The notes under the pieces were generated by a model. That model did no database searches. It saw only the letters and a program-made list of their open reading frames with translations, and was not told where the DNA came from. 64,000 bases of DNA from contig NIVC01000046.1 of assembly GCA_002269645.1 (NCBI GenBank), positions 205,306 through 269,305 on the forward strand, written 5' to 3'. Each line of letters starts with the position of its first letter. Position 1 is the first letter of the stretch. Below are positions 8,420-48,000 of the stretch, in pieces. The position numbers and the translations under genes were made by a program. This stretch comes from Macrostomum lignano. Lineage: Eukaryota.

Positions 8420-8625
8420 TTCACTGCTCGGAGAGATGTTTTTGAGCAGCTGAGTTTGTGGTAAGCAGTTTGGCATCTCCAGTCAGATAGGACTCATTTA
8501 TAGTTATAGCAACTCTGACAGGCAAACATAAAATCGGCCCTATTGGCCCAATCGGGTCTGTTACGAGCGTAGCAATTTTTTTAATAGGTTTATACAGTCA
8601 GTGTACTTTCGGACATTACTCTTTC

Positions 8626-24900: not shown

Positions 24901-26830
24901 GGGTCGTAAAAACATGACAGGTGCGGCCATAAATCACTCAAAATCGCAACAAAATTATTTATGACTTTTCGCGTAGACTTGACAAAAATGAATGAAAAAA
25001 TATACATTAGAAAGCTCTTATTAAATAGAAAGTGAAGATAATGAAGAGAAATCGCTAATCGCTAATCCCAAAGTACTTTTATTGGTAAAACGCGCATAGC
25101 TGTCGAAGCTGTCACACGCTCGAGTGAACACGAACAATAGGCTCTGACCTCAGAAGTCTTGATGGCCTGTCAAAATGATGAGAAAAAAGCTACCGCCCGC
25201 ATCCTCTCAGACCATCTGGCGCCTGCCTCAACACTGAGTGAGGCGCAGGTGGCTGTCAGACCATGCAGCTACGAAAGCGATGATATGACCCAAAAAGCTG
25301 CGTCTATGTTTACTACTATAAGTATGACCAAATATTAAATCTAGTATAGATTCTATGACAATTCGCAGAAAAAGGATAAAAATGCCCACTGCCCACTGTT
25401 AGTAGGCTAGTAAGTTTAGAGCCCATGTGCTAGCGCGGGATTTGGAAAAAAGTGCATCCTCGAGCTCATCATATTCATAATTTAGGGTCGACCTTCGTTG
25501 AACTAAAACCGGTGATCAGGTCAAGAAGGAACTTTATCATTTGACAGGTCGGGGTTTTGGATAGAAAAGGGGAAAACTTACGTCGCATTCAGGTTAACAT
25601 TTACCATATTTGGAAAATCTAGCATAGATCGATGTTGCGAGTCTTTTTTTGAACTATAGAGAACTCGCTGTTTTCGTGATATTGCTGGTATTACTAAAAG
25701 TATGGCGCATGCTGTTTTTAAATTTGTATTCGTACCTTTATCGAAAGACCACTGGTCCTTGATTTTATCTTACTACTTCTAGTAGTCTACTTTGTTTTGA
25801 AAATCTCTACAAGAGAAGAGACGAGATGAGAGGAGAGAGGAGAGAGATGGAATGAGACATCGATGAGAGAGGAGAGTGAGAGAAAAGAGAGAGAAGACAG
25901 CTGAGAAGAGACACCAACCTTGATCGGGCCAGATTGCTAATTGTAAAGTTTCAAAGCAAGACGGCCGAATTGAGCGGGCTGGAATTTGCCGACGCGACCC
26001 CTCCTTGCACCAATTATAAAGCAATCTTGGAATTGTTAATTTCAAAATCAGTTTTCAGTTAATAAATTAAATCTTACTCGACGCTAAAAAGAGTGTATAT
26101 ATTCACTAAAAAGATAGCTGACGTCGGTCAATTTTGTTGAAGTTACTGACAATTGTTTTAAATTTTGAATATTATCCACCCTGCCAAAATTAAATTAATT
26201 AAATTAAACATTATAGGGTCGGAAAAACGTATTCATTTCCCGATTGACATTCAGATTCACATTCAAATTTTAACAAAGCCGCTGTAACTTTTCTTTACTT
26301 GAACGAAACGCTTTAAAATTTTACAAAAACTTTGACGCAATCAAGAAAAAAAACTACGTAAAATATCTCGGCATTTAAAAATAGACTGTACAAATTATTC
26401 ACATATAAAGTTTGTTCCTATCTCCTTAGTGTATTATTATGCAACTCAACAAAACGGCTTAAAATACACGCAGAGCTACGAAACTTTATTTTTCTCTTGA
26501 CGCACGCGAGATGCGTTGGCAAGTGAAAAATCAGCACCCTAGCTTAAAGCCTGTACGAGTTATTCACCTGCAAACTGTGTTCCTATCTCCGTAGTGTATT
26601 TTGGGGGTCCAGCTTGACATTCGCTGACAGACACTTCTACTCAACGCAGAGCTACGAAACTTTATTTTTCTCTTGACGCACGCGAGATGCGTTGGCAAGT
26701 GAAAAATCAGCACCCTAGCTTAAAGCCTGTACGAGTTATTCACCTGCAAACTGTGTTCCTATCTCCGTAGTGTATTTTGGGGGTCCAGCTTGACATTCGC
26801 TGACAGCCATGCAGCCATGCAGAAGACTTT

Positions 26831-28249
26831 TTAAACAGTGGATCCTCTTTCTGTGAATGATGAAGAGGTGACCGGACATTTTTTCAACCAGCATTTCGTC
26901 AACCGGCAGTTCGTCAACCAGACATTACGGCAACTCAGCAAATTGTAGCTGATAATTATATAGCTCTGCACCAGCCAGAGAATGTGAGAATGGCCGCTAT
27001 TAGCAACCGAGAGAGTCAAAAGCAGGGCTTCCAAGAACTCCAGAAAGCAGAGCTTCTCACCAGCAGCAAATCTGCCGGGCCAGATGCGCCTGATAATTCC
27101 TTGTACTTCTGCGGCAGAAGTATTTTTTAGAGCTAGCATTTGATGAAAAAGCAGCGGTAGAGATCTTTGCAAGTCGCTAGCTATGTCCCGTCTCATTAAT
27201 GGGCCGTTCTGCTCCATCCAGTAAAGAAGCTGAATGGCAGAATTGGCATAGCAGTCTGCTCCGCTATTTCTTAGTCCACAGAGAGGCTGCGGCTCTGAAC
27301 TTCTTGATGATGTTTGTTTGGCAGCCTTTGCCCCTGAACTATGCTCTTGACGAGGCTCTGTTCTAACATTTTCCTCAGCAGGTAGAGATGTGTAAAGATT
27401 AGCGTTGAGGCTTTTAGGAAGCTGTGTATCAACGAAGCGGCGCTCAGGATATCGTTGGCGAAAGCAATCTGGGTCGTAGGCATAATGACCTAGGAGCAAA
27501 AGAACTGCCATTACATGGCAGTCACAGCCAGCTGTTCGGCTACCAACTTTGGACGAGGAGTAGTGGGCATGTAGCCTCCTTAGACCGGCATCGTGGAATC
27601 CAAAAGGGTTTCCATTCGGTAAATCGCTGAGGCGAAGAAGGACTCGATATGTTCGAGATGTGTGCCTCGAAAACACAACGGACAAAAATATCCACGACGG
27701 TTGCCAGTTGCCGAATTTCTTTTGCCAGTTCCTTGCCTGCTGTTCTTGCCGGAATTTCCAGCAGCGCATCGATTGAGGCAGCTGCGATGCAAGGTCTTCA
27801 AGCTCTAACCACGTATCACCGTCGAAATACTCAAGCGTGTGTTCCACCTGGATGTTTTGGATATAGCTTTCAGACTGCTGTACATGAAATGGTCCCACAC
27901 TTACTTCGTGAAGGTTGTCTATCTCAATTCGAGGAAAGCCTGTGGACTCTGGATCTAGCACATCGACTGGTGACCAGCGCCTCGACCCTTCGATAGGAAT
28001 TCGGGTCACGTCACACAGGTAGTTCACACCTTCAATCGGATCGAATTCGTTGCTGAGAAACATGCGCCTATTAAAATTCTGACCAAACTCAAAAAGTGAG
28101 CTGTCATTCCATGACTTTGGCAGCGTTTTATTCAATGGGAATCCAATGTGCGATCGGTTGTATTTGGCAATACAGTTGTCGATAATGACATCTAGCCGAC
28201 TCGACAGAAAAGCGGAAAAGCGTAGCCAGCCTACTGGTATTTGACTCAA
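26831..28249 (-). CDS. 472-aa ORF: C-terminal part of DDE_Tnp_4/ISL2EU-like transposase with degenerate SWIM, fused to N-half of a USP (peptidase C19) domain
   Basis: GPFHVQQSESY, FSRHTSRTYRV and YSSSKVGSRTAGCDCHVMAVLLLLG recall that transposase family. GLRNSGADCYANSAIQLL is a USP Cys box. GEKLCFLEFLEALL resembles the QD..EF box. No DDE core and no His box. Confidence 0.65.
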   Translation of the reverse strand: MSQIPVGWLRFSAFLSSRLDVIIDNCIAKYNRSHIGFPLNKTLPKSWNDSSLFEFGQNFNRRMFLSNEFDPIEGVNYLCDVTRIPIEGSRRWSPVDVLDPESTGFPRIEIDNLHEVSVGPFHVQQSESYIQNIQVEHTLEYFDGDTWLELEDLASQLPQSMRCWKFRQEQQARNWQKKFGNWQPSWIFLSVVFSRHTSRTYRVLLRLSDLPNGNPFGFHDAGLRRLHAHYSSSKVGSRTAGCDCHVMAVLLLLGHYAYDPDCFRQRYPERRFVDTQLPKSLNANLYTSLPAEENVRTEPRQEHSSGAKAAKQTSSRSSEPQPLCGLRNSGADCYANSAIQLLYWMEQNGPLMRRDIASDLQRSLPLLFHQMLALKNTSAAEVQGIIRRIWPGRFAAGEKLCFLEFLEALLLTLSVANSGHSHILWLVQSYIIISYNLLSCRNVWLTNCRLTKCWLKKCPVTSSSFTERGSTV

Positions 28250-28545
28250 TAGCAGTCAGTTTTCCGTGAAGGGGGCGATCCTCAGCCGATACTGGATTCT
28301 TTGAGCCTTAGGTTCACATGAAATCCGGTCCGGTCACCGGATCGGAAATAAGTCCGGTCACCTCTTCATCATTCACAGAAAGAGGATCCACTGTTTAAAA
28401 AGTCTTCTGCATGGCTGCATGGTGTAGCAGACTCCCAATGAGTCCCGTTTTCGACTTCCGGGCTTCACCAGATGGCTCAAACAACTCCCGATCATGAGGA
28501 CCCCACTAAAGCAGCGTAAAAATGATGCGATGCGTGCTCATCAGC

Positions 28546-29765
28546 GTCAGCGAATGTCAAGCTGGACCCCCAAAATACACTACGGAGATAGGAACACAGT
28601 TTGCAGGTGAATAACTCGTACAGGCTTTAAGCTAGGGTGCTGATTTTTCACTTGCCAACGCATCTCGCATGCGTCAAGAGAAAAATAAAGTTTTGTAGCT
28701 CTGCGTTGAGTAGAAGTGTCTGTCAGCGAATGTCAAGCTGGACCCCCAAAATACACTACGGAGATAGGAACACAGTTTGCAGGTGAATAACTCGTACAGG
28801 CTTTAAGCTAGGGTGCTGATTTTTCACTTGCCAACGCATCTCGCGTGCGTCAAGAGAAAAATAAAGTTTCGTAGCTCTGCGTTGAGTAGAAGTGTCTGTC
28901 AGCGAATGTCAAGCTGGACCCCCAAAATATACACTGCGGAGATAGGAACACAGTTTGCAGGTGAATAACTCGTACAGGCTTTAAGCTAGGGTGCTGATTT
29001 TTCACTTGCCAACGCATCTCGCATGCGTCAAGAGAAAAATAAAGTTTCGTAGCTCTGCGTTGAGTAGAAGTGTCTGTCAGCGAATGTCAAGCTGGACCCC
29101 CAAAATACACTGCGGAGATAGGAACACAGTTTGCAGGTGAATAACTCGTACAGGCTTTAAGCTAGGGTGCTGATTTTTGACTTGCCAACGCATCTCGCGT
29201 GCGTCAAGAGAAAAATAAAGTTTCGTAGCTCTGCGTTGAGTAGAAGTGTCTGTCAGCGAATGTCAAGCTGGACCCCCAAAATACACTACGGAGATAGGAA
29301 CACAGTTTGCAGGTGAATAACTCGTACAGGCTTTAAGCTAGGGTGCTGATTTTTCACTTGCCAACGCATCTCGCATGCGTCAAGAGAAAAATAAAGTTTT
29401 GTAGCTCTGCGTTGAGTAGAAGTGTCTGTCAGCGAATGTCAAGCTGGACCCCCAAAATACACTACGGAGATAGGAACACAGTTTGCAGGTGAATAACTCG
29501 TACAGGCTTTAAGCTAGGGTGCTGATTTTTCACTTGCCAACGCATCTCGCGTGCGTCAAGAGAAAAATAAAGTTTCGTAGCTCTGCGTTGAGTAGAAGTG
29601 TCTGTCAGCGAATGTCAAGCTGGACCCCCAAAATACACTACGGAGATAGGAACACAGTTTGCAGGTGAATAACTCGTACAGGCTTTAAGCTAGGGTGCTG
29701 ATTTTTCACTTGCCAACGCATCTCGCGTGCGTCAAGAGAAAAATAAAGTTTCGTAGCTCTGCGTG
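28546..29765. repeat. 176-bp tandem array (~7 copies) within right TIR; ~2 inverted copies at 26470-26807
   Basis: GTCAGCGAATGTCAAGCTGGACCCCC at 28546, 28722, 28898 and onward. Confidence 0.95.
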
Positions 29766-30099
29766 TATTTTAAGCCGTTTTGTTGAGTTGCATAATAATA
29801 CACTAAGGAGATAGGAACAAACTTTATATGTGAATAATTTGTACAGTCTATTTTTAAATGCCGAGATATTTTACGTAGTTTTTTTTCTTGATTGCGTCAA
29901 AGTTTTTGTAAAATTTTAAAGCGTTTCGTTCAAGTAAAGAAAAGTTACAGCGGCTTTGTTAAAATTTGAATGTGAATCTGAATGTCAATCGGGAAATGAA
30001 TACGTTCGGAAAAACGGAAACCCAACTCCCCCTGATGGCTGCGATGGAGAAGAATGAAGTATTCTTTCAATGACAATAAAATAAAATGATTTTATTTTA

Positions 30100-33000
30100 T
30101 TTTAGACTTTATTACCTAATAAAATAAGAATACATAAGAATAAGACACATTCGACACTTATAATAGTATAGACACCTAATTGTTTTTATAAATTTATTGT
30201 TTTTAGGCTTTAGAAAAAAAGCATTGATGCTTACATTATTCTACTCTCCTTATGCTACTCTTATCTTTTAACAACATATTTCTGTGGCTAGCTGGAAATT
30301 ATTGATTGTTGATATTGATATTTATCAAAGCCATAGGCCATAGGCCTAGAGTTTTTTATTTTTAACTCTTTTGTTTTCTAAATTTACACATATTTCTTGC
30401 AACCTCTGCAATACATTTGCCTGTTGGTGAACTAGGAACGTTAGAGCAGCGGAGCGTTAGCTACTCTAGCTTGCCACTTAGAGCAATGAAGTGTACAACA
30501 AGCCCCATGACTTCAAATTAACTGCAAGCCTGTCTAGCCATCTATGCTAAGGCCATAAGAGTGAAAGATATATGATCTTTTAGCATATTCTTAACTGATT
30601 GGCAAACAGAATTGTATAGTTAATAGCTGTGGTACAGCAACCTTCACCATATTGATATAGTTGGCAAAAGAATAAGCCTAGAGTAATATAGGATAGGAAA
30701 TGCTTTGCCAATAGGCCCCCAAATCTTAAGAATCTAAATCACTCAATTAGACTAAATGACTTCCTATCAAATGTAATCAATAAGCTTAGCTATAAAAAAG
30801 GTAGGTGGGAAAGGGTAGGCCTATTTTATAAGTCAATTTGAATTTATAAGATAATTTATAGTAAATTTTTAGACCAAGTCTTTTGACAAAAAATTATTAG
30901 TCAGATTAGAGACTAGTAATAGATTTACCAAGGTTGCTTTGTAACTCTGGCCTTTAGTTCAAGGTCATTTGCTAGCCATTTTTTATTTGGCCTTAGATTG
31001 GCCTAGAAACAATGTAGATATAAGCTGCTGCTAGTGTTACTGCAGTGGTATTTCTTGGGTATAACTAAAGTTGGCCTTGCACTTTGGTATTATAAAGCAA
31101 GTAAGTTAGTGACAAAGCTAATTAAAAAGTTTTTAATGTTAGCCCTATCTTATTGGTAAATAGCAACATAGCTTCAGTTTTAGCAATGGCATTGTTCTGT
31201 TATTTATTTTGCTTGTTATCAACTTTTTTTATTTGTTTGAGCAAGTTAAAGGCTTCAATATAATAGCTCCTCAAATGAGACCATACTTCTATTAATAGTA
31301 AGGTGGGGGTGGGGAAAAAATGGGGGAGGGTCACAATGGGCAGTTTCTAATGTTTGAATTGCCGCCTGCATTGTCTTGGTACTCGTAAAACTGGAATTAT
31401 TACCATAAAACTTGAATTACTTTCTCCATTGGATACTCCGTCTGCTGGGTCCTCAATTCCAAGGGGGAGGATAGTTTTAATCGTAGTCAAGCAGTCTTTA
31501 GCAAGCATAGTCATTCAGATAGTAGACTCAATGGTCTAGACACCACAATTCTCTTTTCTGAGTTTTCTGAATTGATTACTTTTAGTAGAGTAACATTGCT
31601 ACCACCGTAATTTACATATTATGGAACATTGAGATCTCAGGGCTCGTTTGAAGTTGAGACTAAGTCAGTTGTTTTTTATGCCCCAAAGGCAAATAACTCA
31701 AGATAAACTATTAAGGGCTTTAATAGATTAGTGAAATTAAGTAGAAAGCAGGTCACCAAATTATTTATTATTTTGCCAACAGATGTTTTAGCTACAACAA
31801 AGGGTAATCTAGCTATGCCAAGATGTAGAATAATTAGTAAATTTAATTAACAGCGGTCGCTATTAACGGTTTAAACAAAATGCTAGAAAGAGAGTACAAA
31901 ACACAACCAAAGAGCCACAAAAAAACAAGGAGAAAGGAAAAGGAGGAAAAGAAAACGATGACAATGTATGCCATAAAGGTGGCCAGGACAGCTATATAAA
32001 TAATAACAACAAGCGGCGCCAAGCAAGCAGGGCAACCAGCAGGTCAACCAAGGGAAAAGGTGCCTATGGGAGGGGTCAACCCAAGGATTCTCATAGAAAA
32101 ACGGTAAAAAACAGAAAAAAACACAGGATGGGGCAGCAAGGGGAATAGCCTCAGGAACAAGGACAAGACAGGGAGAGACAAATGATAGGACAGGCGATGA
32201 CGACAAAATTTTGTTATCAAAAAGGGAAAGAAATGGTTTCGTGGAAAATTAATGCCAAAAATAAACAGTCAAAAGACTTAGTGGTAGACTGCACTACCAC
32301 AATAGCCTTAGCTTATTGGGTCTTGGGTGCCACAGTTAATAGTCACTTTGGAAACTACTTTTATCAAGAAAAGCAAATATAGTGCTCAATTTATAATAAA
32401 AAAGGCAATCATAAAAGCCAAAGGCATATTTCTATACAGTATATAAAGAAAAAATGTTTATGGCATATGCTATTGATGAAATTGTTTCTTAGGCACATTA
32501 TAATTGAAAGGAAAAAGAAAAGTAATATGGTAATAGTAAATTAAATGCTATAGATATGAAGCAAATAATAAGCAAAATTCTACAAAAATAATGTCAATAA
32601 TAAAGTATTATTACAAATGTCAATATAAAACCTTAGTTCAGAAATGGTAGTTTTGTGAGAGATCTCAATATTCTAACTAGCCCAGTTAGGGAAATACCTA
32701 GGTGCACCTCAATGTTGATGAGTTTTTGCTGGATTGGCTTATTGGCTAGCATCAAGATCATCTTGAAATTGATCAATGGCATACTATAGCATGGCACTAG
32801 CTTCCTCTTGTGATAGCCATGTTTTTAGTTGCCATAGGCTTGGCTAGAGATAGGCCTACTATGGCAGAGCCTGATTGAGACAAAGATAGGTGATTCTTTT
32901 AAGTACTCTCAAATGCTGTGCACTATTTTGAGTATGACACTGCATATTAATGAGAGCTAGTGCTATCTTATGATAATCTCGGGTTATGGTTTTCTTCACT

Positions 33001-33258
33001 ATGCAACTTTGGGTTGTTAATAATGCAAGGCATCTAAAACTAACTTGGCAATAAATAGTCAATGAAGCACAGCAGTTAGAAAATAAAATTAGATAATATA
33101 ATAAAAATCAAATTGGTGGTAAAGGCAAAAAATGAGCATCTGAATAAGTCATATAAATAGTCATAAGCAGTGCACCATGCCTTTCAAATATAATATTTCT
33201 TTCATGCTAAACAATTTTCCTATCATATCAATAAGCAACAACTTTATCTAATTGCTGC
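30100..33258. other. CpG-depleted, TA/TAG-rich tract (probably old mutated repeats)
   Basis: Roughly 20 CpG in 3.1 kb by eye; no intact ORF. Confidence 0.7.
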
Positions 33259-34340
33259 TGAAATAGATGCTGATTTCTTCCCGGATTAGGCCCTTGTGGA
33301 TTACCTTAAATCTCGAGCCTCTTCAGAGGGAAGTTCTCTTAAATCTCTCAGTAGCGTAGGTAGTGCTGCCACCAGTTCCTTCAGGTCTCAGCCTTCGGTG
33401 AGGTGAGCTTCCCGTCGGAACAAAATAATGAAGTCAACAAACACAGCACTGCGTGCAGATTTAGAGTGCAACAAATAGGGCATCTTGTCAGCAGTACCTG
33501 CCAGGCTAGGATGGTAGAGGGAGGGCTGAGTTAGCCTCTCATAGACTTGGGTTGACTTGGTCGGGTTTCAGTCGGAGCAATAGGAATAGAATCGATATGC
33601 GCAAAGGCTTGGACACTTGGGATTTAGTTACACGCAGACGTAGAACTCGAGGTTGAACAGAAAGAAGCCTCCTTGACAGAAACAAGGGGGAGAGAGCTCT
33701 TATTTATAGCTGGGAAACTCCCGCGCTCAAGACCTCGTGACTTGTTCTATTTTTAGAACTGACGTCACTCGAGAATCTCAGGCAGGGTACAAGCGCACGG
33801 AAGACCTCGTGACTTGTTCTATTTTTAGAAATGACGTCACTCGAGAATCTCGGGCAGGGTACAAGCGCACGGAAGACCTCGTGACTTGTTCTATTTTTAG
33901 AACTGATGTCACTTGAGGGTCCCCCAGAAGAGTGCACATGGCTGTGACTCAGTTGCTATTTTTAGCAACATGAGTCACTCCTCTCCTTAGAAAAGGGAGG
34001 GGTCCGAAAGCATGTGACTTATCCGGTAAACAGAGCCAGCAAGTGCAGTAAACATGTTTACTGCACTTTGAGACTCAGAGAACGCAGAAACTGTCATGTG
34101 ACCAGCTCACAAGACAGGGAGACAGAGACTGACGAAACAAGGACAGCCCGCAACAGAGAAGTTGCGGGCTGAGAAACGCAGGGCAACACGGGCAGAAGAA
34201 AGGGAGGGGGCAGCAACAGACAGCCAAGAGGAGGGAAGCGGGAAGCTGCCCAGCGGCAGACAGCAACCCAGGGCAAGGGCGAGGGCAAGGGCAACTGCTA
34301 ACAAAGTGGGACGCCTAACATTAACTAGTAGATCACTACA
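33259..34340 (-). repeat. 3' LTR (1082 bp)
   Basis: Near-identical to 42221-43298; PPT GGGGAGAG adjoins at 34341-34348. Confidence 0.97.
33701..34068 (-). promoter_or_regulatory. LTR U3: TATA box, ~3 x 72-bp repeats with CRE (TGACGTCA), 28-bp palindrome with two forkhead sites
   Basis: Minus-strand GCTATAAATA at 33710-33701. 72-bp repeats 33729-33920. AAGTGCAGTAAACATGTTTACTGCACTT at 34041-34068. Same layout in the 5' LTR. Confidence 0.6.
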
Positions 34341-34849
34341 CTCTCCCCATTCAAATGAAGAGGCGGAGTGAAAGCGAAGTGCGCTTTATTTAAGAAAATA
34401 GAAATCATTCATTTACTAAAAAAAATTAAAAGTGTGGCAAAAAGATGGCGAATTTCACACGGCTGGCAATGGCTGGGCTAGGGCCGGGATTGCAGCCCAA
34501 AATTTGGTGAATGCGAGTGGGGGGTGCCAGCCCCTGAGAAAAGGCGCCTAAATAGGCAGGTTGCACTCAAATAATGGCAGAGCCCGGCCAAAGATGAAAA
34601 TTAGAGATTTATCAGGCTGCATAAAAGAGGGCCACACAGGCCAAATGTCGAGCGGCTGGGCGAGGGCCAGTGTGTCACCCTAATGCATGTGGGGCGCCGG
34701 CCGCGAAATGCAAGGCGCCTAAATATGATTAAACGCAGAAGAAAAGGGGGGGGGCAATAGCACCAAATGGGGACGGAACAATCCGCGGACCCCTAAAGGG
34801 TATTGGGATTGGTCTTAGATTGTCCCGGACTACAGTTCGTCCTTAAATT

Positions 34850-36043
34850 TCAGAAATTTGGCCCGCGCTGGGCGAACACCCCCGGCAATTCCGGTGTACG
34901 GCCGGCGATCTCCTGGGCAATGGCCAGAGCGACATCGCGGGCAGCAGGCCTGTGCCTCGATTGCACTAGCTCCGGGCCGGCGATTACCGCGGCCTGGTCG
35001 AGGACGGCCTGTCGCTCCTCGTCAGCAAACGCACGCAGCCAGCGCAGCTCTGGCCAGTCAGCGGGTCTCGGTTGCGTGCCATCCCGGGCCGCTGCGATCA
35101 ACCAGGCGGCCACTCGGGAGGTCGCTTCTTCGATCATCCGCCGCCGCTCGTAAACGTCCGTGGAGCCGCCTACCAGCTCAAAGCCAGTCCCGGTCGTCTG
35201 GACGGCCGCGTCCGTCGTGCCTGCCCGAGCCGATGCTAGTGGGAAAGCTGCCTGCAGTTCAGCAGCCAGGTGGCTCCACGAGTATTCCGGCAGGCTGCTG
35301 GCACCTTCCGAGGCGATGCTGACTGGAGAGTTGGGCGGAGCAGGCGGATATGCGGCCTGCAACTCGCTCGCCAGGTTCTGCCATCCATGGAGTGGCAGGC
35401 TGTCCTCCTCCACGTGGGTGTAGTCGGTCTGAATGCCAGCCTCCAGCGACTCCGGCCACAGGTCCTCGGCCAACGTAGGCAGCAAGGGCGTGCTGATGCT
35501 ATTGGGCGGAGAAGCCGGGACCAGCAGCAAGTCCGGGCCAACGAAGCGCCAAGCCGTAGCCTCCGTAGCCTCCGTAGCCTCCGTCGGCGGCGTCGGTTCA
35601 GCCTTGACCTCCCGCTTGATGACCTGCGGGTAGAAGGGGGCTGCCGACGGCTGAGCCGTCAGCTGCTGTCGTGCGCGGGCCAGGCCGCTGTCGATCTCTT
35701 GGCGGATGGCCGCGCTCCCAGCGTTGAAGCTGCGGGGAGAGGCGACCTGAAGCCGCCGGACAGGTGTTGGCTCTCGCCGCTCAGGCGGCGGAGAGCGTCG
35801 GCGCGGCATTGGAGCTGACAGTCGGCTCGCCGGGCGGCTGCCCAACCGCAGGTGCACAGGCACGCGAGCCGCGTCTGAAGGGCCGCCAAAGGGCTCAAAC
35901 TGGCCGGCTGCTGCCCCGATCGGCCGGAGAGTAGCAGATGGCACCGGCATATTACCCGAGCGAGGTCGGCGGATATCGCGGCGTTCTTCGCTGTCACTAG
36001 GCGGCGAGCGCTCAATGCGTTTGGTTGGTTTGCGCGGGTGCAT
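34850..36043 (-). CDS. Accessory ORF3 of the Gypsy element (397 aa, no TM segment)
   Basis: ATG-initiated and uninterrupted, between integrase and PPT. Arg/Pro-rich N-terminus and helical C-terminal domain. Confidence 0.6.
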   Translation of the reverse strand: MHPRKPTKRIERSPPSDSEERRDIRRPRSGNMPVPSATLRPIGAAAGQFEPFGGPSDAARVPVHLRLGSRPASRLSAPMPRRRSPPPERREPTPVRRLQVASPRSFNAGSAAIRQEIDSGLARARQQLTAQPSAAPFYPQVIKREVKAEPTPPTEATEATEATAWRFVGPDLLLVPASPPNSISTPLLPTLAEDLWPESLEAGIQTDYTHVEEDSLPLHGWQNLASELQAAYPPAPPNSPVSIASEGASSLPEYSWSHLAAELQAAFPLASARAGTTDAAVQTTGTGFELVGGSTDVYERRRMIEEATSRVAAWLIAAARDGTQPRPADWPELRWLRAFADEERQAVLDQAAVIAGPELVQSRHRPAARDVALAIAQEIAGRTPELPGVFAQRGPNF

Positions 36044-39000
36044 TTCTGCGCTGGAATGCGTTTTAATCTGCGAGCGGATGCGGGCGATGCGGCTAGCATA
36101 AGTCTTGGCCCTAGGATTAATAACCAGCTCATTGTATCTGCTCGCACTGGCTCACGCCGAAGTGCACTTGCCTGGTTCGCTGGTGTCGTGACCGGTCCAC
36201 CTCCTGGCAGCACCCCCGGGATCGCCAAAGGCCGGAAGTGCCATCGGAAGGCCGGCCTTGCGTCGTAGCCGTCATCATCGTCATCATCGGCGTCGTCCTG
36301 GTCGTCCTCGGGGATCGGCGTCAGGGTCGCGGGTCCTGCGCCGTCGGGAACGTCAGGCGGTCGTTGACGCGTCCTTGGCTTGTCGACTTCAGGATCGGAA
36401 GTCCTCGTGTAGTCAGCGTCAGGCACGAGCAGAAGGTTCCGGCGATGGACGACTAGTTCGTCTCGTCTAGCTTTCGGGTTTGGCAGTCTCCGTCGAATCT
36501 TGTAGACGACCTCGCCCTTGGGCTCGACGACTTCATACAGTGCTTTGCGCGGTCGGTGAAACTTCGCCGCCTCGTCCGGTTCAAGCGCCGGATTGTTGAG
36601 GAAGACCAGGTCGCCAGGTTGAAGCCTCTTGGCGGCGGGCAGGTTCGAGTAGTGCTCGTCTCGCAGTTGCTGGTGCAGATGCAAGCGCTCCTTGGCTAGC
36701 TCAGTCGCTTCGTCCAGGCGACGTTGGAAGTCCTTGACGTAGTCGGGCAGGTCGGCATACTCGGGCAGCTTCTTCAGCGCGTTGTCGATCGGGAGTCGGA
36801 AGTCACGGCCGAACACCAGGTAGTGAGGCGTGAAACCGGTCACCGGGTGCACGCTGGAGCGGAGAGCCATCAGACAGGCCGGGAGGAAGGTGTCCCAGTC
36901 GTTGTGGTTGCGCTCGAGCAGACAGGTGAGGACACTCTTCAGCTGCTTGTTGAGGTTCTCGACTTGTCCATTGGAAGCTGGATTGTACGGTGTTGTTGTC
37001 GTATGCCGAATGCCAAACAGGTCGCAGAACTTCTTGAAGGCCGAACCGGTGAAGTTGGTGCCTTGGTCGGTGTGGATCCAGCATGGTACACCGAACTCAG
37101 GGATGAAGCGCTCCTGCAGAAGCTTGATGACTGTCTTGGCTTTCTGGTTTCTCATCGGGTAGGCGAATGGATACTTCGACGTCGCATCGCACAAGGTCAG
37201 GATGTAGCGGTTGCCGCTCTTGCTCTTCTGCGCGATTGGTCCTACTACATCACAGTGGATTCTACCCAGAACTTCGCAAACTGGGAAGCTCTGGACCGGA
37301 ACTCTCTCTCGCCGTCGCGATTTACTTTCAAGGCAGGTGCGGCACTTACTGATGAAGGTTTTGGTAGCACGGGCTAATCCGGGTCTCCAGAACCGTTCTC
37401 GTAGCCGCAGTAACGTCTTCGTCTCGCCGAGGTGTCCACACAGTGGCGAACTGTGGAGCTCCTGGAGCACCTGGGCGTCAAGGGCCTCAGGCAGAACAAC
37501 CTTTGGCGGCTGCTGGCCATCGGACAGGTCAATCAGCAGCAGGCCGTTGTCCTCCTGCAGGTTCTCGTAGTATCCGAGCAGGTTCCGCTGCTCCTTCGTC
37601 AGGCGCAACCGGGCGTCGAACTCAGGCTTCGGGGCTTCGTCCTTGACCAGGTTGAGCACGTAGCTAATGGCTCGGTCAGCGCGCTGGGCTTCAACGAACT
37701 GTTGGCGAGTCATCGGCAGCTTCAGAAAATCAGTGAGCACGTCGCGGCATGGCTGAGGGGTCATGACTACCGCAGTCTCCGCTTTAATGGCTCCAGGTCG
37801 ATCACACGGCACCGTCTTGTCGGCGTCAGGATTAGGTCGCTCCGAGGGACTTTGTCTCACAACGTCGGCGTACGTCCGTTGATCTCGTTTCGAAGTTCTC
37901 ATCGTCGCTCTCGTGACAGAAAATTCCGCAGATGGAGCAGCGCGCATGCCTCCACTGCCTAGCCCAGGCGACTCTTGGCTGTAGGGCGGGACGCAACACG
38001 TGAAGCACGCCTCGTCGCTAGCAGCCGTAGCCGTCGGCTCAGTCGTCGTCAATTCTGGGTGAGTCTTCTCCTGCACTGGGCGGTGTCGCAAAGGGGGACT
38101 CGACTTTCCGCACAGGCGATGAGCAGCTGTCTGTCGGCCCGGGGGACAGAGCTTCGACCTTGCAGCTGGCGCGAGATTCTGGCCTCTGTCAACACGGCGA
38201 GAAATCTCAGCGAAAGGCTCGGAGGGGTTGTAGTTAAATTGCTTGCCTGGAGTTGCGTTGCGGGCCGTCATCAGAAGGGCTGCTGGTGCGGTGGCCTTTG
38301 AATCTTGGTCCGTGGGCGTCTCCAGAGTCCGAGACCTGTAGTCTTGGGCATCGTCAAGGAGGTCTGTGTTCACAGTGGCCTCAAGGTCTTCGTCCAGGTT
38401 GGGACAAATTGCAGCGGGCGGCATGGGCATCGCGGCAGAGGGCTGTTGTCGCAGTGGCCTCTGGGTTGTCGTCCAAGCCGGTCTCCAGGCGTTGACTACA
38501 GCGGTGGGCGTCGTGCTGGAAGGCTGCTGGCGCGGTGGCTTCCAGGTCTTCGTCCAGGTCAGTCTCGGCCTCCAAGCAGCGAGAGTGGACTGTCTTCAGG
38601 AGGGCTGCTCTAGCAGTGGCCTCGGGTGTCGGGTCCAAATCCGGTTCCAGGTCGTGGTCGTCACCGGGTCGGGCTGTAGAACCAGGTTGCTCTAGCAGTC
38701 GGCCATGCTCGAAGGAGATCGGCGGCGCCTCCGGTCTTCTTGACAGGGCATCAGCGTTGGCGTGGTCCTTGCCTTTGCGGTGGTTGAGCTGGAAGCGGAA
38801 CTCGCTTAGGCGTTCGATCCAGCGGTCTAAAATACCTGTGGCCTGAGTCTGGTTCAGTAACCACAGTAAGGCCCGATGATCGGATCGAACTTCAAACTTC
38901 TTGCCAATTAAATAATGACGAAAATGTCGCATAGCGTCCACAATTGCAAGCAGCTCTTTCTTCGTGACCGTGTAGCGCTTCTCAGGATCGCGAAGTTTAC

Positions 39001-40951
39001 GGCTAAAGAATGCAATTGGACGTTCGACACCGTCGGATTGCAGTTGTCCAAGGCAAGCGCCTATTCGAATATCAGAGGCATCCGTGTCGAGGACAAACTT
39101 CACAGCAGGATCAGAATTAAATTCAGGCAGAGCGAGAACTTCAGTAGAACACAATTTCTTCTTCAGAGTGTCGAACGCTACCTGATGCTCGGGAGTCCAA
39201 TGCTGCCGCAGGCTGCCAATGTCCTTTCGCGTCAGGGCATGCAGCGGCGCAGCCACTCCAGCGTAGCCGTCGACAAACTTGTGGTAGTAATTGGCGAGGC
39301 CTAGGAATTGTCTCAGTTGAGTAACGGACTGTGGCACGGGCCAATCACGGATCTGCGCAATCTTGTCCTCACAGGTCTTCAGGCCGTCGGGAGTCACGAC
39401 GTGACCTAAATAATGCAGCTCCTTGAGGAACAATGACACTTCTTCGGCTTCACTTTGAGGTTTGCTGCGATGATGCGCTGGAGCACGGTCCGCAAATTAT
39501 CCAGCTGTTCCTCAAAGGTCACTGAGTGCACCACGATGTCGTCCATGTAGCCAAGCGCAGTCTTTGGCGTCAGGCGGTCCAGGAGCTTATTGATGCAACG
39601 CTGAAAGCTGCCGGGACTATCGTGGAGACCCATCGGTAGAACTTTAAAACAGAATTGGCCGCGGTCGATCACTGAGAATGCCGTCAAGTGCTGGTCGCAG
39701 TCGCGCAGCGGGATCTGCCAGAAACCTTGAGCAAGGTCCAAGCTAGAATACCACTGAGCACCACGAAGCTTCGCGAAGGTCTCTTGGATGTGCGGGAGCG
39801 GATACGGGTGATACACACACCTGTCGTTGAGAGCTCTGAAGTCGTGGACTAGTCGGATGTTGCCGTCCTTCTTGGGCACGATGAGCATTGGCGAATTGTA
39901 GCTCGAGTAGGCAGGGCGAATGATGTGCTTCGCCAGCATCTCGTCTAGCAGGGCGTCGAGCTTGTCCTTCAGATGAGGCGGGATTCTGCGCGGTGGTAGC
40001 GCAACTGGTGTCCGATCTTTCAGGACGATCTCGTGGGTCACCAGGTGAGTCAGGCCGGCGTCTAGCAGGTGCTTGGAGAAGGCCGCTTGACATTCAACTA
40101 GTAGATCTCGCACTCGCTGATGTTGTTCTTTGGACAATTCGCTGTTGATCTCGACTTCATCTAGCCATGCTATGCTTGACTCTTCAGGACTCTTCGACAG
40201 CTGTCGCACTTCAGGTTCGGGCGTCTCGCTCAAGTACATCAGGTCGGCAGTTCGGAGTGGCGTCGCAACACCAACACGGATACCGGCCTGCAGGAACACC
40301 TCGCTGTCGGCGGTGTTGACGACCTCAATGTAGCCGCGACCTTCAGGCATCGTCATCAGAGCAGGCGCTGCTTCCAGAGCGTTGCAGCTGGGATGCAGCC
40401 TCGACTTAACCAGCTCGACAATTGATGGCGATCCTCGATTCTCAGGGTGGCCGTCATCCAGTCTGACGGCAAGCAGCGCTGAACTTCTAGGCGGCAGGGT
40501 GCACTTCTCGGAGGTGTACACTCGGCGGGTCTGAAGCTCACGGCGCGAATAACGAACGGGGATGCACGTGCCGTTGTTGAACGTCAGCATTCCTTGAGCG
40601 AAGTCCAAGTTCTGGCAGTGCTCTCGCATAAACGATACGCCAAGCAATTTTTCACAATCGGAGACCGTCCGCGACGACATCACCGAACTCCACCGGAATG
40701 GTCACCTTACAAGCAAGTGGGAGCTGCGTCCCATCATACATAGTTACGCAATCGGGAATAGCATGCGATATAATACAACGAGGCATCCGACGTCTAATAG
40801 CGGCCCAGGTTGACGAACCAAGAAAGTTTTTCCGGCTGCCGCTGTCTAGCAAGAAAGGGACCTCTCGACTCGCAACTCGACCTGTGACGTACGGATCGGC
40901 CTCACGCGCATGGATTTTTTGATTCGGGAGGTGTCCACGAAACCTCCGCAC
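35659..40951 (-). CDS. pol: Gypsy pol (protease, RT, RNase H, long linker, integrase), broken by ~4 frameshifts
   Basis: FLLDSGS (PR); LDLAQGFWQ, LPMGL, YMDD (RT); LDTDAS...KKELLAI (RH); H-H-C-C zinc finger, HCDVVGP, HTDQGTNF, GQVENLNK (IN). Confidence 0.95.
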
Positions 40952-40961
40952 TCCGCGTCAC

Positions 40962-42217
40962 TTACTGGCGAGTGACTGTCGGACTGGGCATTGGCGCCTG
41001 CACAGCCGACATCCTCTTCTTCTGGTGACCTCTCGGAGTCTGCCAAGTAACCTGGGCTTGGACCTCGCGGAGGGCGGTGCCGTTGTCGCTCTCCGCCTGG
41101 CCGTTTCCCTGGTTCTGGCGCATCGGGCACTGGGTGTTGCGATGACCGGGCTGTCCGCAGCTATAGCAGATTATAGCTCTCTTCGGCGGACTGGCTATCT
41201 GCTGTTGGTCACGCTGCACCAGGTGATCAAGCAGTCGCTGCTGCTTCTCGATCAAGTCGGTTAGAGTTAGCAAGGCTTGGGCGGTGACGTCGGGCTTCGG
41301 GTCGCCGTCCTGCTCCCCGTCCAACATCCTAACCGGGGGTTGAGCGGTTCGCTGCGCCAATTCTTTGGCGCCTTCTAGTCGTCGTAGTTCTCGAATCGCA
41401 GCAAGAAGATTATTTGGGCGAACCCAGTACAGCCGTTCACGCAGATCTGGAGTCCGGATGCCAGCAAGAAATTGATCAGCGATCTCCTTCTCGCGGTCTT
41501 CAGGATGCATTCGAGGATACGCACGTTCACCAAGAGTTCTCAGGGCGTCAGCAAACTCTTCTGCTGACTCATTCTTGCCTTGTTGACGACGCCTCAACAG
41601 CTCTCTGTACTCATCAGCACCACCATGACGGGCAAATCGCTCAATCAGACGCTGCTTGACCTCCTCGTAGCTGGCAAAACGCGGAAGATTCATACCAAGC
41701 AAGGCAGGATACGCAGTCGCTAAGTCAAGACTCGCGATGAGGTGTTGTTCATCTCGAACGGGTCGACGATGCGCTCCATCTCGCAACGCTGCTCGAACGC
41801 GGCAAGCCAGACATGAATGTCCTGACTTGGAGTAAATTTCACAGTTTTAACTTGTTTACTCACGGGCCGCTCCATCTGCTGCTGCAGAGCTGCCATCATG
41901 GTCCTCACGTCCTGGTGCGTGATGTTCCGGCCGATGTTGTCCAGGCCTTGCAGAAGCTCGTCTGGCGGGTCGTCGGACACGTCGCTTCTGGCACCTCGCC
42001 TCGGCGTCGGCTGCTGACCAAAGTCGTTGATCGCTGCTGCTGCTGCGGCGTCCGCTGCCGCAGGCCTCGAACTGCTGATGTGCTGATCCAGCCGGCTGCT
42101 GCACCGGCTCTCGTCTCGCTCGTTGAACATGTTGAACTCGTCGTAGTCGCTGGCCGATGTCGTTCTCGAAAGAGCGGTTGGCTTGGGTGTGTCGTAGTCG
42201 GATCCCACCGCTGCCAC
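40962..42217 (-). CDS. gag: Gypsy gag with CCHC zinc knuckle (one internal frameshift ~41780)
   Basis: CYSCGQPGHRNTQC; capsid-like LRRRQQGKNESAEEFADAL. Confidence 0.9.
41103..41109 (-). promoter_or_regulatory. Putative -1 ribosomal frameshift slippery site G GGA AAC
   Basis: Correct phase in gag. The -1 frame is open downstream to 40846. A GCGGAG/CTCCGC stem follows. Confidence 0.65.
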
Positions 42218-42219
42218 CA
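42202..42219 (-). other. Primer-binding site complementary to tRNA-Leu(AAG/TAG) 3' end
   Basis: Plus strand ATCCCACCGCTGCCACCA equals the canonical eukaryotic tRNA-Leu 3' end plus CCA, 1 nt from the LTR. Confidence 0.9.
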
Positions 42220-42220
42220 G

Positions 42221-43298
42221 TGAAATAGATGCTGATTTCTTCCCGGATTAGGCCCTTGTGGATTACCTTAAATCTCGAGCCTCTTCAGAGGGAAGTTCTC
42301 TTAAATCTCTCAGTAGCGTAGGTAGTGCTGCCACCAGTTCCTTCAGGTCTCAGCCTTCGGTGAGGTGAGCTTCCCGTCGAACAAAATAATGAAGTCAACA
42401 AACACAGCACTGCGTGCAGATTTAGAGCGCAACGAATAGGGCGTCTTGTCAGCAGTACCTGCCAGGCTAGGATGGTAGAGGGAGGGCTGAGTTAGCCTCT
42501 CATAGACTTGGGTTGACTTGGTCGGGTTTCAGTCGGAGCAATAGGAATAGAATCGATATGCGCAAAGGCTTGGACACTTGGGATTTAGTTACACGCAGAC
42601 GTAGAACTCGAGGTTGAACAGAAAGAAGCCTCCTTGACGGAAACAAGGGGAGAGAGCTCTTATTTATAGCTGGGAAACTCCCGCGCTCAAGACCTCGTGA
42701 CTTGTTCTATTTTTAGAACTGACGTCACTCGAGAATCTCGGGCAGGGTACAAGCGCACGGAAGACCTCGTGACTTGTTCTATTTTTAGAAATGACGTCAC
42801 TCGAGAATCTCGGGCAGGGTACAAGCGCACGGAAGACCTCGTGACTTGTTCTATTTTTAGAACTGACGTCACTTGAGGGTCCCCCGGCAGAGTGCACATG
42901 GCTGTGACTTAGTTGCTATTTTTAGCAACATGAGTCACTCCTCTCCTTAGAAAAGGGAGGGGTCCGAAAGCATGTGACTCATCCGGTAAACAGGGCCAGC
43001 AAGTGCAGTAAACATGTTTACTGCACTTTGAGACTCAGAGAACGCAGAAACTGTCATGTGACCAGCTCACAAGACAGGGAGACAAAGACTGACGAAACAA
43101 GGACAGCCCGCAACAGAGAAGTTGCGGGCTGAGAAACGCAGGGCAACACGGGCAGAAGAAAGGGAGGGGCAGCAACAGACAGCCAAGAGGAGGAAGCGGG
43201 AAGCTGCCCAGCGGCAGACAGCAACCCAGGGCAAGGGCGAGGGCAAGGGCAACTGCTAACAAAGTGGGACGCCTAACATTAACTAGCGGATCACTACA
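42221..43298 (-). repeat. 5' LTR (1078 bp)
   Basis: Direct repeat of 33259-34340. Confidence 0.97.
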
Positions 43299-43302
43299 CT
43301 GC

Positions 43303-45070
43303 TCTAATTAGTTTCCCATTCTCACCCTTTTCTCTGGTAGTTTTAGTTATAATAATATTAGTTTTTATTATATATTGCAATGATATTAGAACTCAGTAAA
43401 ATACAATAGCCTAATATCAAGAAATGATATCCTATCTTTGCCTCTAACTATATTTTGATTTTCCTAGATCTACTAGTTACATTTTAAGATTTAATTTTCC
43501 AAAAGGTCTAGAAATTCAATTGTTAGATATTGTTAGAAGATCTAGAAGTCAGCTAACAAAGACCATTGACTAGCAAGGTAGCCAGTTTTCTATATATTGC
43601 AGATCACTTTTATAATTGCACAAGGGCTTCAATAGCTTTAAGAAATGCTTCTAGCTTAAGTAGATGCTGCAAATTAAAAGCAATAAAAAAGCAGACAAGT
43701 ACAATGATGGTATCCATCATATAAATATAAATCATTTAAATCTTTAACCAAAGATGCTAAGAAAAAGTTAATACGTGCCTTTTTGAACATATTATTAGTA
43801 CAAATAAAATAAAAAATAAGCTCTTTTGATGACTTCCAATATTCAGGAATAATAAGAATAATAAAAATAAATAACATAATTTATGCTTTGTTTTGCTAAA
43901 CAAATAGGATAGCAAATTTCTGATTCATTTTAATATAATATTTAATAAATTGCATGATTACATAGACACACATACGCACATGGACAAACCATTTTTAGTA
44001 TATGGATCTCACTAGTTTAGTCTATTTGAATTTGACTTGGCTCATTACTATTTTTACTTCATCTATTTAGTAGTATTAACAAATGAATGAAAATGATCAG
44101 AATTAATTGTTTTTCAACTGATTCTAATTCACTGTTCTTCTTTTTTCATTGACATTAATATTAGGAAATTGAATATTTGACTTTAAGTGCTTCCTTTAAG
44201 CATGTTGCCTAAGAGCCTCTATAGTACATCTAATCAAAAGTACTTTTGCTACTTTACACTAACTTTTTGACTTACTATATATAATTAGTCTATGGTTGAG
44301 TTCCTACTATATTTATTTATAAGTTTTGTTTCCATTTTCTGTTTTAAAAGATGTTAAATTTAATATAAAAGAGAGAGTTGATACTGCAAAATTGTGCTAA
44401 ATGATATTATTTGGATCAGAATGAGAAATACAATAAAGATAAAATTACTTTTGGGACAGCAATTATAGTTACTATTAATTAATGTCTGAAAAAACTATGA
44501 AGTATAGTAGTACCTTACAAAGACTAAAGAAATGAAGTGTAGCCACTGAACTTTGGTGGTAATTAAGGGCATTCTACAGGCCATTAGTGCACTTGCACTG
44601 GGGTTCTTGCTGCCACCAATGTTTAAGAACAAAAACTTAGAGTCAAATCACATAGTACATTTGCCAATGTGCAATGGCTGACAAGCAATTATATATAGCC
44701 AGTGAAAGGTTAAAATGACTCACCCAACTGGGGGTGGCAGGTGGCATGCACAGAGTAAAGCAAGATGTAAGTAATTAGAGAACAGCTCCCACATCTGAAC
44801 AGCTCCAAAATAATACACAGTGTCAAAACATGGAAAAAACATTTTCTACTTAAAATAGATTTTAAAAGTTTCTTTTGAAAATTTCACTAGTTGCTTTTTA
44901 ACCCCTTAGGTTAGTTGTTTCTTAGCTACTGAAGAAGCTGTGAATATTAGTTAATAACTAATTCAGTACATTCAGTACTTTTTAAGTTTGCCAGTCTTGA
45001 TTTTTGCCACAATTAAAACAAAATAAAAAGTTTCCTGTAAAACAAACTTCTTCTGCTCCAGACCAGTTGG
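43303..45070. other. Nearly CpG-free AT-rich tract
   Basis: Only 2 CpG found by eye in ~1.77 kb. Confidence 0.75.
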
Positions 45071-45078
45071 CCGTTGCC

Positions 45079-48000
45079 ATGCCGCTGCCAGCCTCATCAC
45101 TGAGCCTGCTGCTCTTGTCTCCCAGGAGACTAGCAATCCCAGCCTCCATCTGTTGCTATCGCCAATTTCAAACAAGCCAATCGCTGAATAAAAACAGCGG
45201 CAAGCCCCGATTGAAAACCATCCCAGTGTCCAACGCTTCTCAACGAGTTGCCCGCGGCTCCGCGGCCGCCTCAGCTCAGGCTCTGCTCAACCTCACGCCT
45301 GAGGCTTTGAAGAAGAAAATTGAAGAGCGCAACGCGGCTGAGGCTGCCGATCCCAGACGGGGTCGCCAGCCGGAAGCGGAGTGCCACCTCCGCGACCTGT
45401 TCGAGCCGAGACGCCTGCCATTGGTGGAGATTCTACGAAGGCATCGAGAGTTTGCCTGTCCAGAGATGCTGGACAATCCGAGCGGTCAGCTGTATGCCAC
45501 TTGCTTGTTCGACATGACCTCTGTTAAGCAGGGCAAGTTTATGGCTCCGTTCTCTAAGGTGAGATACTGTTAGAGATCCCTATATTATCTTCATCTTCAT
45601 AGATTTAAGAGTGAGTTGTAGCCTAGTGAGAAGAGCCTCGGACTCACGACTGGAAGATCTTGGACTGGAAGTCCTTGGACTGAACAGCCGTAGGCAGCCT
45701 TTAGATGCGCCGCGCAATAGCTGCGGCTGAGCTGTCGGTTGCACATCTAGCTATTGGGGTAGATGTAATCAATTATTATTATTATTTGTGTCGTCGTGAC
45801 TCAGCACGACAATTTTGGCATCCTGATTTTTTGTGTTTTTTTCCAAGCTGGATACGTACGGTTAAAGATGCTGGTGTTTTATTTGATTTTGAGCTTTTTG
45901 ACTGACGTCAGCTAACAATCCTTAGTTTGGACCTTGGATGCCAAGCAATGCTGTGGTTCTGACGCTTAAAAGTTCAAGAAAGATCTAAAGATTTACATCT
46001 CTTAAGGTTGAGATTTAGACTCTTAAATCAATGTCCATCGGTGAGATTTAGGGGCCCTTAAGAGGTAGTAGGCTATACAAAGCCGGTTGGTATTTAAACA
46101 AAAGATAATTTGAATATCGATTTTTAAGATCGATTTTTATGTTGTAACTTTAAGTTCGAACTTCAAGATCACCTGGCGTTGCCTCAGGTGCTTGCAGCCG
46201 CCCCTGAAATTATTATAGAATTTTCCAAGCGATTTAATCCTCAGTGGGAAAATCAAGCTATTGAAGACTTGTTTTTCATTGTCTATGGCCCAAAAGGGGG
46301 TCTACGGAGCAGCCAATTTGAGAATCTGGGCGCGCAATTAATCCTTTCCTTAGTACTCGTATATCCTTCACGAATAACTTCATTGAAATAACGTCTGCAA
46401 ATGGATGTCATATCAAGAAACGATTTAACGTTAACACTTTGATTTTAGAAAAACAATCAAAACAGGCAAAGGCAAAACCATGCCATACAGTATAAGCCGA
46501 AAACAATCGTGTCTCTCAAAACAGTGTTGGACAGATTGAAATCAAACCCGATCAATGTTCAGAGAATTTCTTCCTCGTTTAAACAGCGTGGTATGAAGCG
46601 AAGCATCTGCCAAAACCAGCCACCGCATTTGGCTATTGTAATTTCATAGCGACGCCTGATCGAATACACTGTTTTTCTCTTTACGTCCAGCCATCGCGAA
46701 ATGTGCTCAGCACTACCACGATGGCAGCGACAATGAGGTCGTACTTTTCGTTGCTTATCTTGCGATAGGGTTCTCGCCCTGCAGGATTCTGCTCATCCAT
46801 CGCATCTTGTGCTGTAGCAAAACTTTCGTCACTGCTTTGCTCGCTAAATTCTTCGTTTGCCATATCTATGTCTAATGGAATCTGTTATTCTCTATGGTCT
46901 AAGGCTTGCACAACTGTTAAAAGGATTAATAGCGCGCCCAAATTCTCGAATTGGCTGCTCCGTAGACCCCCTTTCGGGCCATAGACAATGAAAAACAAGT
47001 CTTCAACAGGTTGATTTTCCCACTAAGGATTAAATCGCTTGCTCCTAGGCCTTAATTGGCTTAGAAAATGCTATACCCGATGCGCCACATACCAGGGAAC
47101 ACTAGTAAAAACTGACAAAGCATGGCGTACTTCAGAATATGTTTAAGACAGCGACTTGAAACTGCAGTATATTTGACTTTAGCATATTGCTGTACTTTAC
47201 TCAAAATATGAACCACCAGCCTCAATCACTTTGCTCAGGCGACCTCTGAATGCAGCACATGTGCGCTGAACAAAGACTCGGGGCATTGCATGCCACTCCC
47301 GCTGAACAGAGCGCCGCAGAGCTGCGACATTCGAATGACGCTTAGCACAGGCCCTGGCCTTCAGACGCGGCCATATGCCGTAGTCAAGGGGCGAGAGATC
47401 TGGTGAGTGCGCAGGCCACAAATCCTTCGGCCAGAAGTCAGGGGCCTCTGAGCTCAGGAACTCCTGGGTCAGGCGGGCAGTGTGTGCTGGTGCTCCATCC
47501 TGCTGCCAGATCCACGCATCGCCGAACGTTTGCCGAGCCCACGGGAAGATGTGCTGACGCAGGATGTCCACGTACTTGGCAGCATTGAGGCGTTCTCCAC
47601 GATCGAGGAAAATTGGTGGAGCAACTTGGCCATCGCTAGCCACCACACCAAGGAGCTGCAGGCCACCGCAGTACTTGGTCTTTTCGACAGCCTTGACGCT
47701 CCAGCTGACCATCTTGGAACTCTTAGCGATGTACCTGGAGTTCTCTGGGCCCAGGAACTCGTCCAGGTGAAGTGGAGTCTCGTCGCTGAACAACACGACG
47801 GTGTCAGGCCTCTTCGACTTCAGACGCGACAGCAAAGCTCTCGCTCTTCGCTGACGCTCTTCAACAGCTCCTTCTGGAAGGTGGTGACGTACCTGCCGCT
47901 TGAAGCACTTTGCGCCAATGTCTTCGTGAACGAGTCGACGCATTGTTGTCGCCGAAACACCACTCTGGGCTGCCAGACTGCGAAGAGATCTTCTTGCATT

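Follow-up and report, generated by a model that had tools for sequence, protein, structure and literature searches.

The locus described here raises the question of why one of the two LTRs of a retrotransposon should lose CpG sites that its twin has kept. An initial annotation of a 64,000-nucleotide stretch of Macrostomum lignano DNA (in the following, this whole stretch is called the window) had reported eight CpG sites intact in the 5' LTR and changed in the 3' LTR, no change the other way and about five non-CpG substitutions. As LTRs are identical at insertion, it proposed a directional, locus-specific C-to-T process that had acted on one LTR only.

Anatomy of the element and its LTR pair

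The element shows gag followed by reverse transcriptase (RT), RNase H and integrase between direct TG...CA LTRs, which is the organization of a Ty3/Gypsy retrotransposon, and a primer binding site, a polypurine tract and a target site duplication are all present. The Pfam matches (zinc knuckle, RT, RNase H, integrase) all lie on the minus strand. Given this orientation, with the primer binding site (42202..42219, minus strand, presumably tRNA-Leu-like) beside the right LTR and the polypurine tract (34341..34356, minus strand) beside the left one, both recognized by their sequence, the left LTR is the 3' LTR. The insertion is flanked by the 4-bp duplication CTGC (33255..33258 and 43299..43302), and a 4-bp duplication is also found at other copies. 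The interior (34341..42220, minus strand) contains the gag zinc knuckle, RT, RNase H, integrase and a 433-aa frame at a CpG O/E of about 1, and pol is broken across several frames in this assembly. Between 34850 and 38595, an integrase frame with a C-terminal extension of more than 400 aa is followed by the 433-aa frame, which is rich in proline and alanine and gave no Pfam match; the 3' region holding both varies between subfamilies. In the 5' LTR, the U3 carries three 72-bp repeats, each with TGACGTCA, which we take to be a CRE-like site, and TATAAA at LTR position 631 is presumably the TATA box.

Alignment of the CpG-eroded 3' LTR (33259..34340, minus strand) with the largely spared 5' LTR (42221..43298, minus strand) gave 14 substitutions and four one-base gaps. 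Nine of these substitutions are CpG transitions at eight sites (33467, 33473, 33482, 33678, 33780, 33907, 33926 and a double change at 34329-34330), all of them CG in the 5' LTR and lost in the 3' LTR. The remaining five, four transitions and one transversion, are non-CpG. Overall, 40 CpGs are counted in the 3' LTR and 48 in the 5' LTR. With 96 CpG positions out of 1078, at least nine of 14 substitutions would fall on them by chance with p=4.6e-7, and the 8:0 direction of the sites has p=0.008. All eight sites quoted in the initial annotation were therefore recovered, the aligned window LTRs hold no CpG change in the opposite direction, and the figure of about five other substitutions was exact. 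One further CpG (33540-1 / 42501-2) is gone from the 3' as well as the 5' LTR of the window and is hidden in a pairwise comparison. The four one-base gaps occur in the window 5' LTR only, are absent from the five other LTR copies of the three haplotypes described below, and are likely assembly errors. Read in element orientation, the CpG changes are six C>T and three G>A, so both strands were hit.

Sister haplotypes and timing of the losses

The same insertion with the same flanks was found on C321 and C4188, so that the locus is present three times in the genome. Eight of the nine window CpG changes are private to the window 3' LTR in this comparison and are therefore post-insertion changes. 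The loss at 33473 is common to all three 3' LTRs and to the C321 5' LTR, and is therefore older than the split of the haplotypes. The sisters have lost CpGs of their own in the 3' LTR (five in C321, one in C4188). At positions covered in all three haplotypes, CpG losses amount to 14/42 in the 3' LTR, 7/692 in the interior and 3/49 in the 5' LTR (Fisher, 3.6e-14 and 0.001). Five of the seven interior losses are at most 750 bp away from the 3' LTR, in an inner tail of the eroded zone (34341..35075), and the three-haplotype comparison showed no interior CpG loss between 35100 and 40200. Altogether, CpG loss at this locus postdates the insertion, occurred repeatedly and extends beyond the limits of the LTR.

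The initial annotation had named two findings that would speak against it, 3' LTR alleles shared with other family copies and a chimeric assembly, and had called for an alignment to family states. In such an alignment the other family copies carry CG at all nine positions; sharing was seen at site 33473 and not at the other eight changes, and the directional C-to-T process at CpG stands. An origin of the two LTRs from different family members, by template switch or recombination, or a chimeric assembly is largely refuted, and we give it next to no credence. It could draw on the common site 33473, on the likely one-base assembly errors of the window and on contigs of four public runs that carry sister alleles at most window-private flank sites. 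However, the sisters keep CG at 8/9 positions, the 4-bp target duplication is intact, and the bias recurs at seven other insertions; in addition, a contig of run X3 (34526-36066), with three differing letters that are all accounted for elsewhere, supports two of the private CpG losses.

Further differences between the haplotypes were seen around the element. Between 30006 and 47075, dense and sparse blocks of divergence alternate between the pairs formed by the window, C321 and C4188 (the window differs at 30000-31550, C321 at 32860-33100 and 44560-45010), which suggests recombination or conversion among haplotypes. The C4188 5' LTR (L003) has three private A>G changes and zero CpG loss. An insertion at 26230-30005, with 176-bp tandem repeats and a 474-aa frame without Pfam match, is absent from C321 and C4188.

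LTR pairs across the family

In each of the family searches, the best 40 candidates were scored (of 115-117 for the leader region), and the sample therefore favours close relatives. Among the matches listed, about 42 independent insertions have both LTRs within the DNA examined (allelic duplicates were checked in part), and 14 of them differ at one CpG at least. CpG losses in these 14, again among the matches listed, stand at 77:24 for 3' versus 5' LTRs, and at 68:24 without the window (p=5e-6). All eight of the listed insertions with at least five CpG differences lean towards the 3' LTR (p=0.008), while the sign test over all 14 listed insertions (10/14) is not significant (p=0.18). The individual 3':5' ratios are 9:0 in the window, 15:2 in C1035, 14:6 in C997 (11:7 in its sister C353), 8:2 in both C4285 and C543, 8:1 in C3260, 8:4 in C382, 5:0 in C922 and 1:0 in C176 and C2457. 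The four that lean 5' are C890 (0:2, antisense to its host gene), C199 and C1718 (0:2 each) and C163 (0:1). Extended beyond the locus, the LTR-pair test thus gave a family-wide 3' bias that four of the 14 listed insertions do not follow. The process cannot be called locus-specific, with the same bias in seven other insertions with at least five CpG differences. Nor did it act on one LTR only, given the 24 losses in 5' LTRs and a zone that reaches past the 3' LTR into the interior. One-sided CpG erosion in the window is confirmed as real, and it is reproducible across the family.

The count of 77:24 leaves out duplicates (C224, C2549, C353, C321, C4188), adjacent LTR duplicates (C1069, C2766), copies with no partner LTR in the DNA examined (C475, C732, C832, C976, C4442, C4935, C2433, C2003, C208, C2761) and one C221 mismatch beside a gap. 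A GpC control is inflated, as it overlaps CpG in GCG/CGC. A second LTR family was kept out of the counts because it is too young to test the bias: its 14 pairs hold five CpG differences in all, four in 3' and one in 5' LTRs as oriented by PBS and PPT. The tandem array at C3668 (L189-L191; LTR-interior-LTR-interior-LTR, with slightly different interiors) was tried as a comparison of middle and outer LTRs and dropped, all three LTRs being identical. Private-allele counts on solo and truncated LTRs were likewise set aside as too strict a measure, since they did not tell 5' from 3' LTRs. C13 is an empty-site homologue of C382.

Regarding direction, family states in 12 insertions place the derived CpG change in the 3' LTR in 57 cases and in the 5' LTR in 12, with 10 ambiguous. 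In the 3' LTRs, 31 of 61 losses lie in U3, one of them in a CRE-like site in the case of the window; the 5'-LTR losses comprise seven in U3 and four in R/U5. The oldest insertion, C353/C997, has lost 6-7 CpGs from its 5' LTR and kept the TATA box.

Derived non-CpG changes also lean 3' (26:14, p=0.08). As the difference from the CpG skew is not significant (p=0.12), a general sparing of the 5' LTR is possible in part. It is also what would be seen if both LTRs mutated alike and 5' LTRs were restored to the family state by gene conversion or held there by selection. Of the three CpG losses in 5' LTRs at the window locus, two match 3'-LTR alleles, as conversion predicts, and 3' LTRs of primate ERVs evolve slightly faster according to the available text of PMC3048862. 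We nevertheless consider this account improbable: it leaves unexplained the dependence on flanking CpG content, the smooth fading inside the 3' end and the intact interior beside the 5' LTR, to which we now turn.

Flanks and shape of the eroded zone

The window element lies in a sharply bounded CpG-poor stretch (30045-45070), the host part of which has a CpG O/E of 0.18 against 0.94 outside. Its left part (30045..33258) is on what would be the host-promoter side, and its right part (43299..45070) ends at a first coding exon. Among the insertions compared, erosion is almost confined to copies within such stretches: copies with CpG-rich flanks show 1 CpG difference against 21 others, and those with CpG-poor flanks 77 against 53 (p=7.5e-7). 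The flank groups were assigned manually, before C997 and C1718 joined the sample; C1718 would give the rich group two more CpG differences. Erosion along the whole length irrespective of site, the pattern of transposon-targeted methylation, was not found, in a comparison limited by the youth of the copies with CpG-rich flanks.

Starting at the 3' end, erosion dies away towards the interior, within about 2 kb in the window and C922 and within 3-4 kb in C3260. Losses per 500 bp from the 3' end are 2/14, 4/20, 3/24 and 1/27 in C922, then 1 in 119, and 3/17, 4/16, 5/24, 14/54, 15/50, 8/41, 3/40, 5/49 and 0/26 in C3260. CpG density as the sole shield of the interior was considered and rejected, as C3260 is eroded at 45-53 CpG per 500 bp. 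Private CpG losses leave gag-pol nearly untouched in the window (3/446), C922 (0/434), C543 (5/440) and C3260 (5/446). In C382 (42/444), C4285 (21/444) and C1035 (12/432) gag-pol is eroded, most strongly just inside the 5' LTR (7/40, 4/42 and 5/42, respectively). The 5'-side erosion in these three and in C353/C997 implies that methylation also enters from the exon side. At the window, the stretch before insertion (the empty site) measures 4985 bp, and erosion presently reaches 5030 bp from the left border; this is a comparison at one locus. In short, the erosion is a positional gradient governed by the host neighbourhood, and no property of one LTR.

TAG and CTA abound in the CpG-poor stretch (28 and 21 per kb, against 13 and 11 outside), CAG/CTG is scarce there, and TG and CA are not raised, unlike in plain CpG decay. 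CpA (non-CpG) methylation as the source of the TAG/CTA excess finds no support in the mutation spectrum of C382, where interior change is 5.7% at CG and 0.7-1.4% at CA, CC and CT. The C382 interior looks older than its LTR pair, carrying about four times more non-CpG change. The same spectrum bears on a strand-specific, APOBEC-like deaminase or a RIP-like repeat mutator, to which the TAG and CTA excess and the one CG>TA double change could be ascribed. We judge such a mutator barely plausible, because the context is CpG, both strands are hit and young repeats in CpG-rich flanks are untouched; a repeat-induced process would moreover be expected to strike both LTRs.

Host genes and orientation

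The exon at which the CpG-poor stretch ends (45058..45561, plus strand, ATG at 45079) is the first coding one of an MRPL1-like gene (mitochondrial ribosomal protein L1). It is preceded by an acceptor-like CTCCAG; further MRPL1-like exons lie at 49210-49518 and 58713-59069, and an exon in the window matches Macrostomum lignano proteins at 99%. CpG O/E in the window is low before the first coding exon and near 1 after it. With values of 0.6-1.2 over 45001-57000, and patchy values past the exon at other loci, the coding body is not CpG-depleted; young intronic transposons may mask such a depletion. The first intron holds a Tc1/mariner-type transposase (47197-48318) that is absent from the alignments of the sister haplotypes. 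A WSC-domain frame lies at 7985-8482 on the minus strand.

Flanking genes were sought by Pfam scans of 143, 108 and 57 frames, picked by length and composition from 218, 227 and 57 candidates. A host gene was found at 12 loci, and in 11 of these it is antisense to the element (p=0.006). The genes are MRPL1 (window), MBF1 (C922), clathrin light chain (C4285), WD40 (C543), SNARE (C1035), thioredoxin-reductase-like (C382), Misato (C890), NAP (C142), Cpn60 (C361, a solo LTR), poly(A) polymerase-like (C629, an LTR with PBS), deaminase (C3668) and cytidylyltransferase-like (C163); in C1035 and C163 the match is not a first exon. Most antisense copies lie upstream of an N-terminal exon with acceptor-like sequence before the ATG. 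For C3260, C199 and C353/C997 the scans gave no flanking gene to fix the orientation.

CpG-poor stretches adjoin the MRPL1, MBF1, clathrin light chain, WD40, thioredoxin-reductase-like, Misato, NAP, Cpn60 and poly(A) polymerase-like genes. At L108, L088, L148, L150, L156, L157, L159 and L189, CpG-poor stretches end at or near housekeeping first coding exons, and such stretches harbour numerous young LTR insertions from two families. Because 30% of the genes of this species are SL trans-spliced, according to the accessible part of PMC8629364, the CpG-poor stretches are plausibly outrons of trans-spliced genes. Contigs of public runs over 29800-36500 contain no splice joints, such contigs being prone to drop rare variants.

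Just one copy, C163, lies in sense orientation, and its LTRs differ at one CpG; orientation and LTR identity are consequently confounded. A rival explanation therefore fits most of the same data. Here, host methylation would enter from both flanks, activity as a promoter (that of the element, or an antisense one of the host gene) would shield the 5' LTR together with the beginning of gag, and the 3' LTR would be occluded. The 5' LTR is indeed spared though its flank is as CpG-poor as the 3' flank (0.11 versus 0.04 in the window, 0.05 versus 0.05 in C4285). According to the part of PMC3491417 available, methylation of the two identical LTRs of a mouse element depends on how near each is to an active promoter. 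C382, whose 5' LTR has an altered TATA box and lacks one repeat, has the weakest bias among the younger copies and deep 5' erosion; it is, however, a poor test in view of the excess of non-CpG change in its interior. Other observations run against a shield: 5' losses fall in U3 too, C353/C997 kept the TATA box and yet lost CpGs from the 5' LTR, and the solo LTR of C361, in a CpG-poor stretch, is eroded (6/59), by a measure that did not separate 5' from 3' LTRs. On balance, we regard the shielded promoter as a rather unlikely explanation.

A reading by cytosine methylation

Genes for C5 DNA methyltransferases are present in the genome (12 PF00145 matches above the cut-off), and the available portions of two reviews describe 5mC as low yet present, and DNMT genes, in Macrostomum lignano (PMC11292947; PMC10658182). 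The changes have the signature of CpG decay, with CpG hit by C>T as well as G>A, well above other contexts. Deamination of 5mC laid down in a host domain, be it with or without a promoter shield, very probably underlies the erosion.

As to why it is one-sided, we lean towards a reading in which 5mC deamination removed CpGs from the 3' LTR once the element was in place, because it had inserted backwards and a methylation zone entered it from the side of the host promoter. The insertion is antisense to a housekeeping gene (MRPL1) and lies in the CpG-poor host DNA that precedes its first coding exon; this stretch would be methylated in the germ line and transcribed towards the exon, likely as an outron. 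If methylation were laid down with host transcription and over a limited distance, a 10-kb insert would have its promoter-side end covered and its far end pushed beyond range. Sense insertions would be purged by selection, so that the 3' LTR would nearly always come to lie inside the zone. This reading is backed by losses that are post-insertion, two-stranded, linked to CpG-poor flanks, graded from the 3' end and found in antisense copies.

A wider proposal, which we put forward as a doubtful one, is that CpG methylation would be confined to the outrons of housekeeping genes, in a promoter-anchored zone of a few kb, and would mark neither coding bodies nor transposons as such. With antisense Gypsy copies surviving there, the host would mutate the very LTR that templates U3 and destroy its CRE-like sites, which would amount to a heritable brake on the family and to a mutational reporter of methylation polarity.

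Comparison with known systems

Several systems resemble this one in part, as judged from the accessible portions of the papers cited. In cnidarian gene-body methylation (PMC8857917, PMC13345969), methylated transposons likewise lie inside transcribed housekeeping genes and the marks follow the host unit. There, however, single transposons are unmethylated or hypermethylated, whereas the flatworm footprint is one-sided and fades over 2-4 kb; the flatworm CpG-poor zone is also upstream of the first coding exon and not in the coding body, and the flatworm evidence is mutational only. In mouse ETn/IAP elements (PMC3491417), it is again the host neighbourhood and not the LTR sequence that decides which LTR is methylated. 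That work concerns three copies, direct measurement and a globally methylated genome in which the promoter-near 3' LTR is spared, whereas in the flatworm the 5' LTR is spared, over many insertions, and the outcome is fixed as germ-line mutation. In primate ERVs (PMC3048862), 3' LTRs evolve faster and single-rate LTR dating is biased, as here; the effect is slight and the available text brings in neither CpG nor methylation, unlike the ratio of about 3:1 overall at CpG, linked to flank type, in the flatworm. In SERV proviruses (PMC8775094), two-stranded CpG transitions also dominate post-insertion change, but the whole provirus decays and 5' and 3' LTRs are under comparable pressure. Searches of a mainly open-access literature listed no paper on CpG decay confined to one side of invertebrate LTR pairs, or on outron methylation in flatworms. 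The chemistry of the erosion is ordinary; its one-sided, orientation-linked form is new, and so is the hint that it suggests of where Macrostomum lignano methylates its genome.

Conclusions

For a model flatworm in which 5mC is reported only as low, the LTR pairs would provide a sequence-only readout of where germ-line methylation is located, and the regions indicated are those that precede first coding exons. Copies in CpG-poor stretches would have their LTR-divergence ages inflated two- to threefold (nine of the 14 differences in the window are CpG changes). As for the family itself, daughter elements take the U3 of both their LTRs from the 3' LTR of the parent, and for this reason one-sided erosion could wear down the family promoter.
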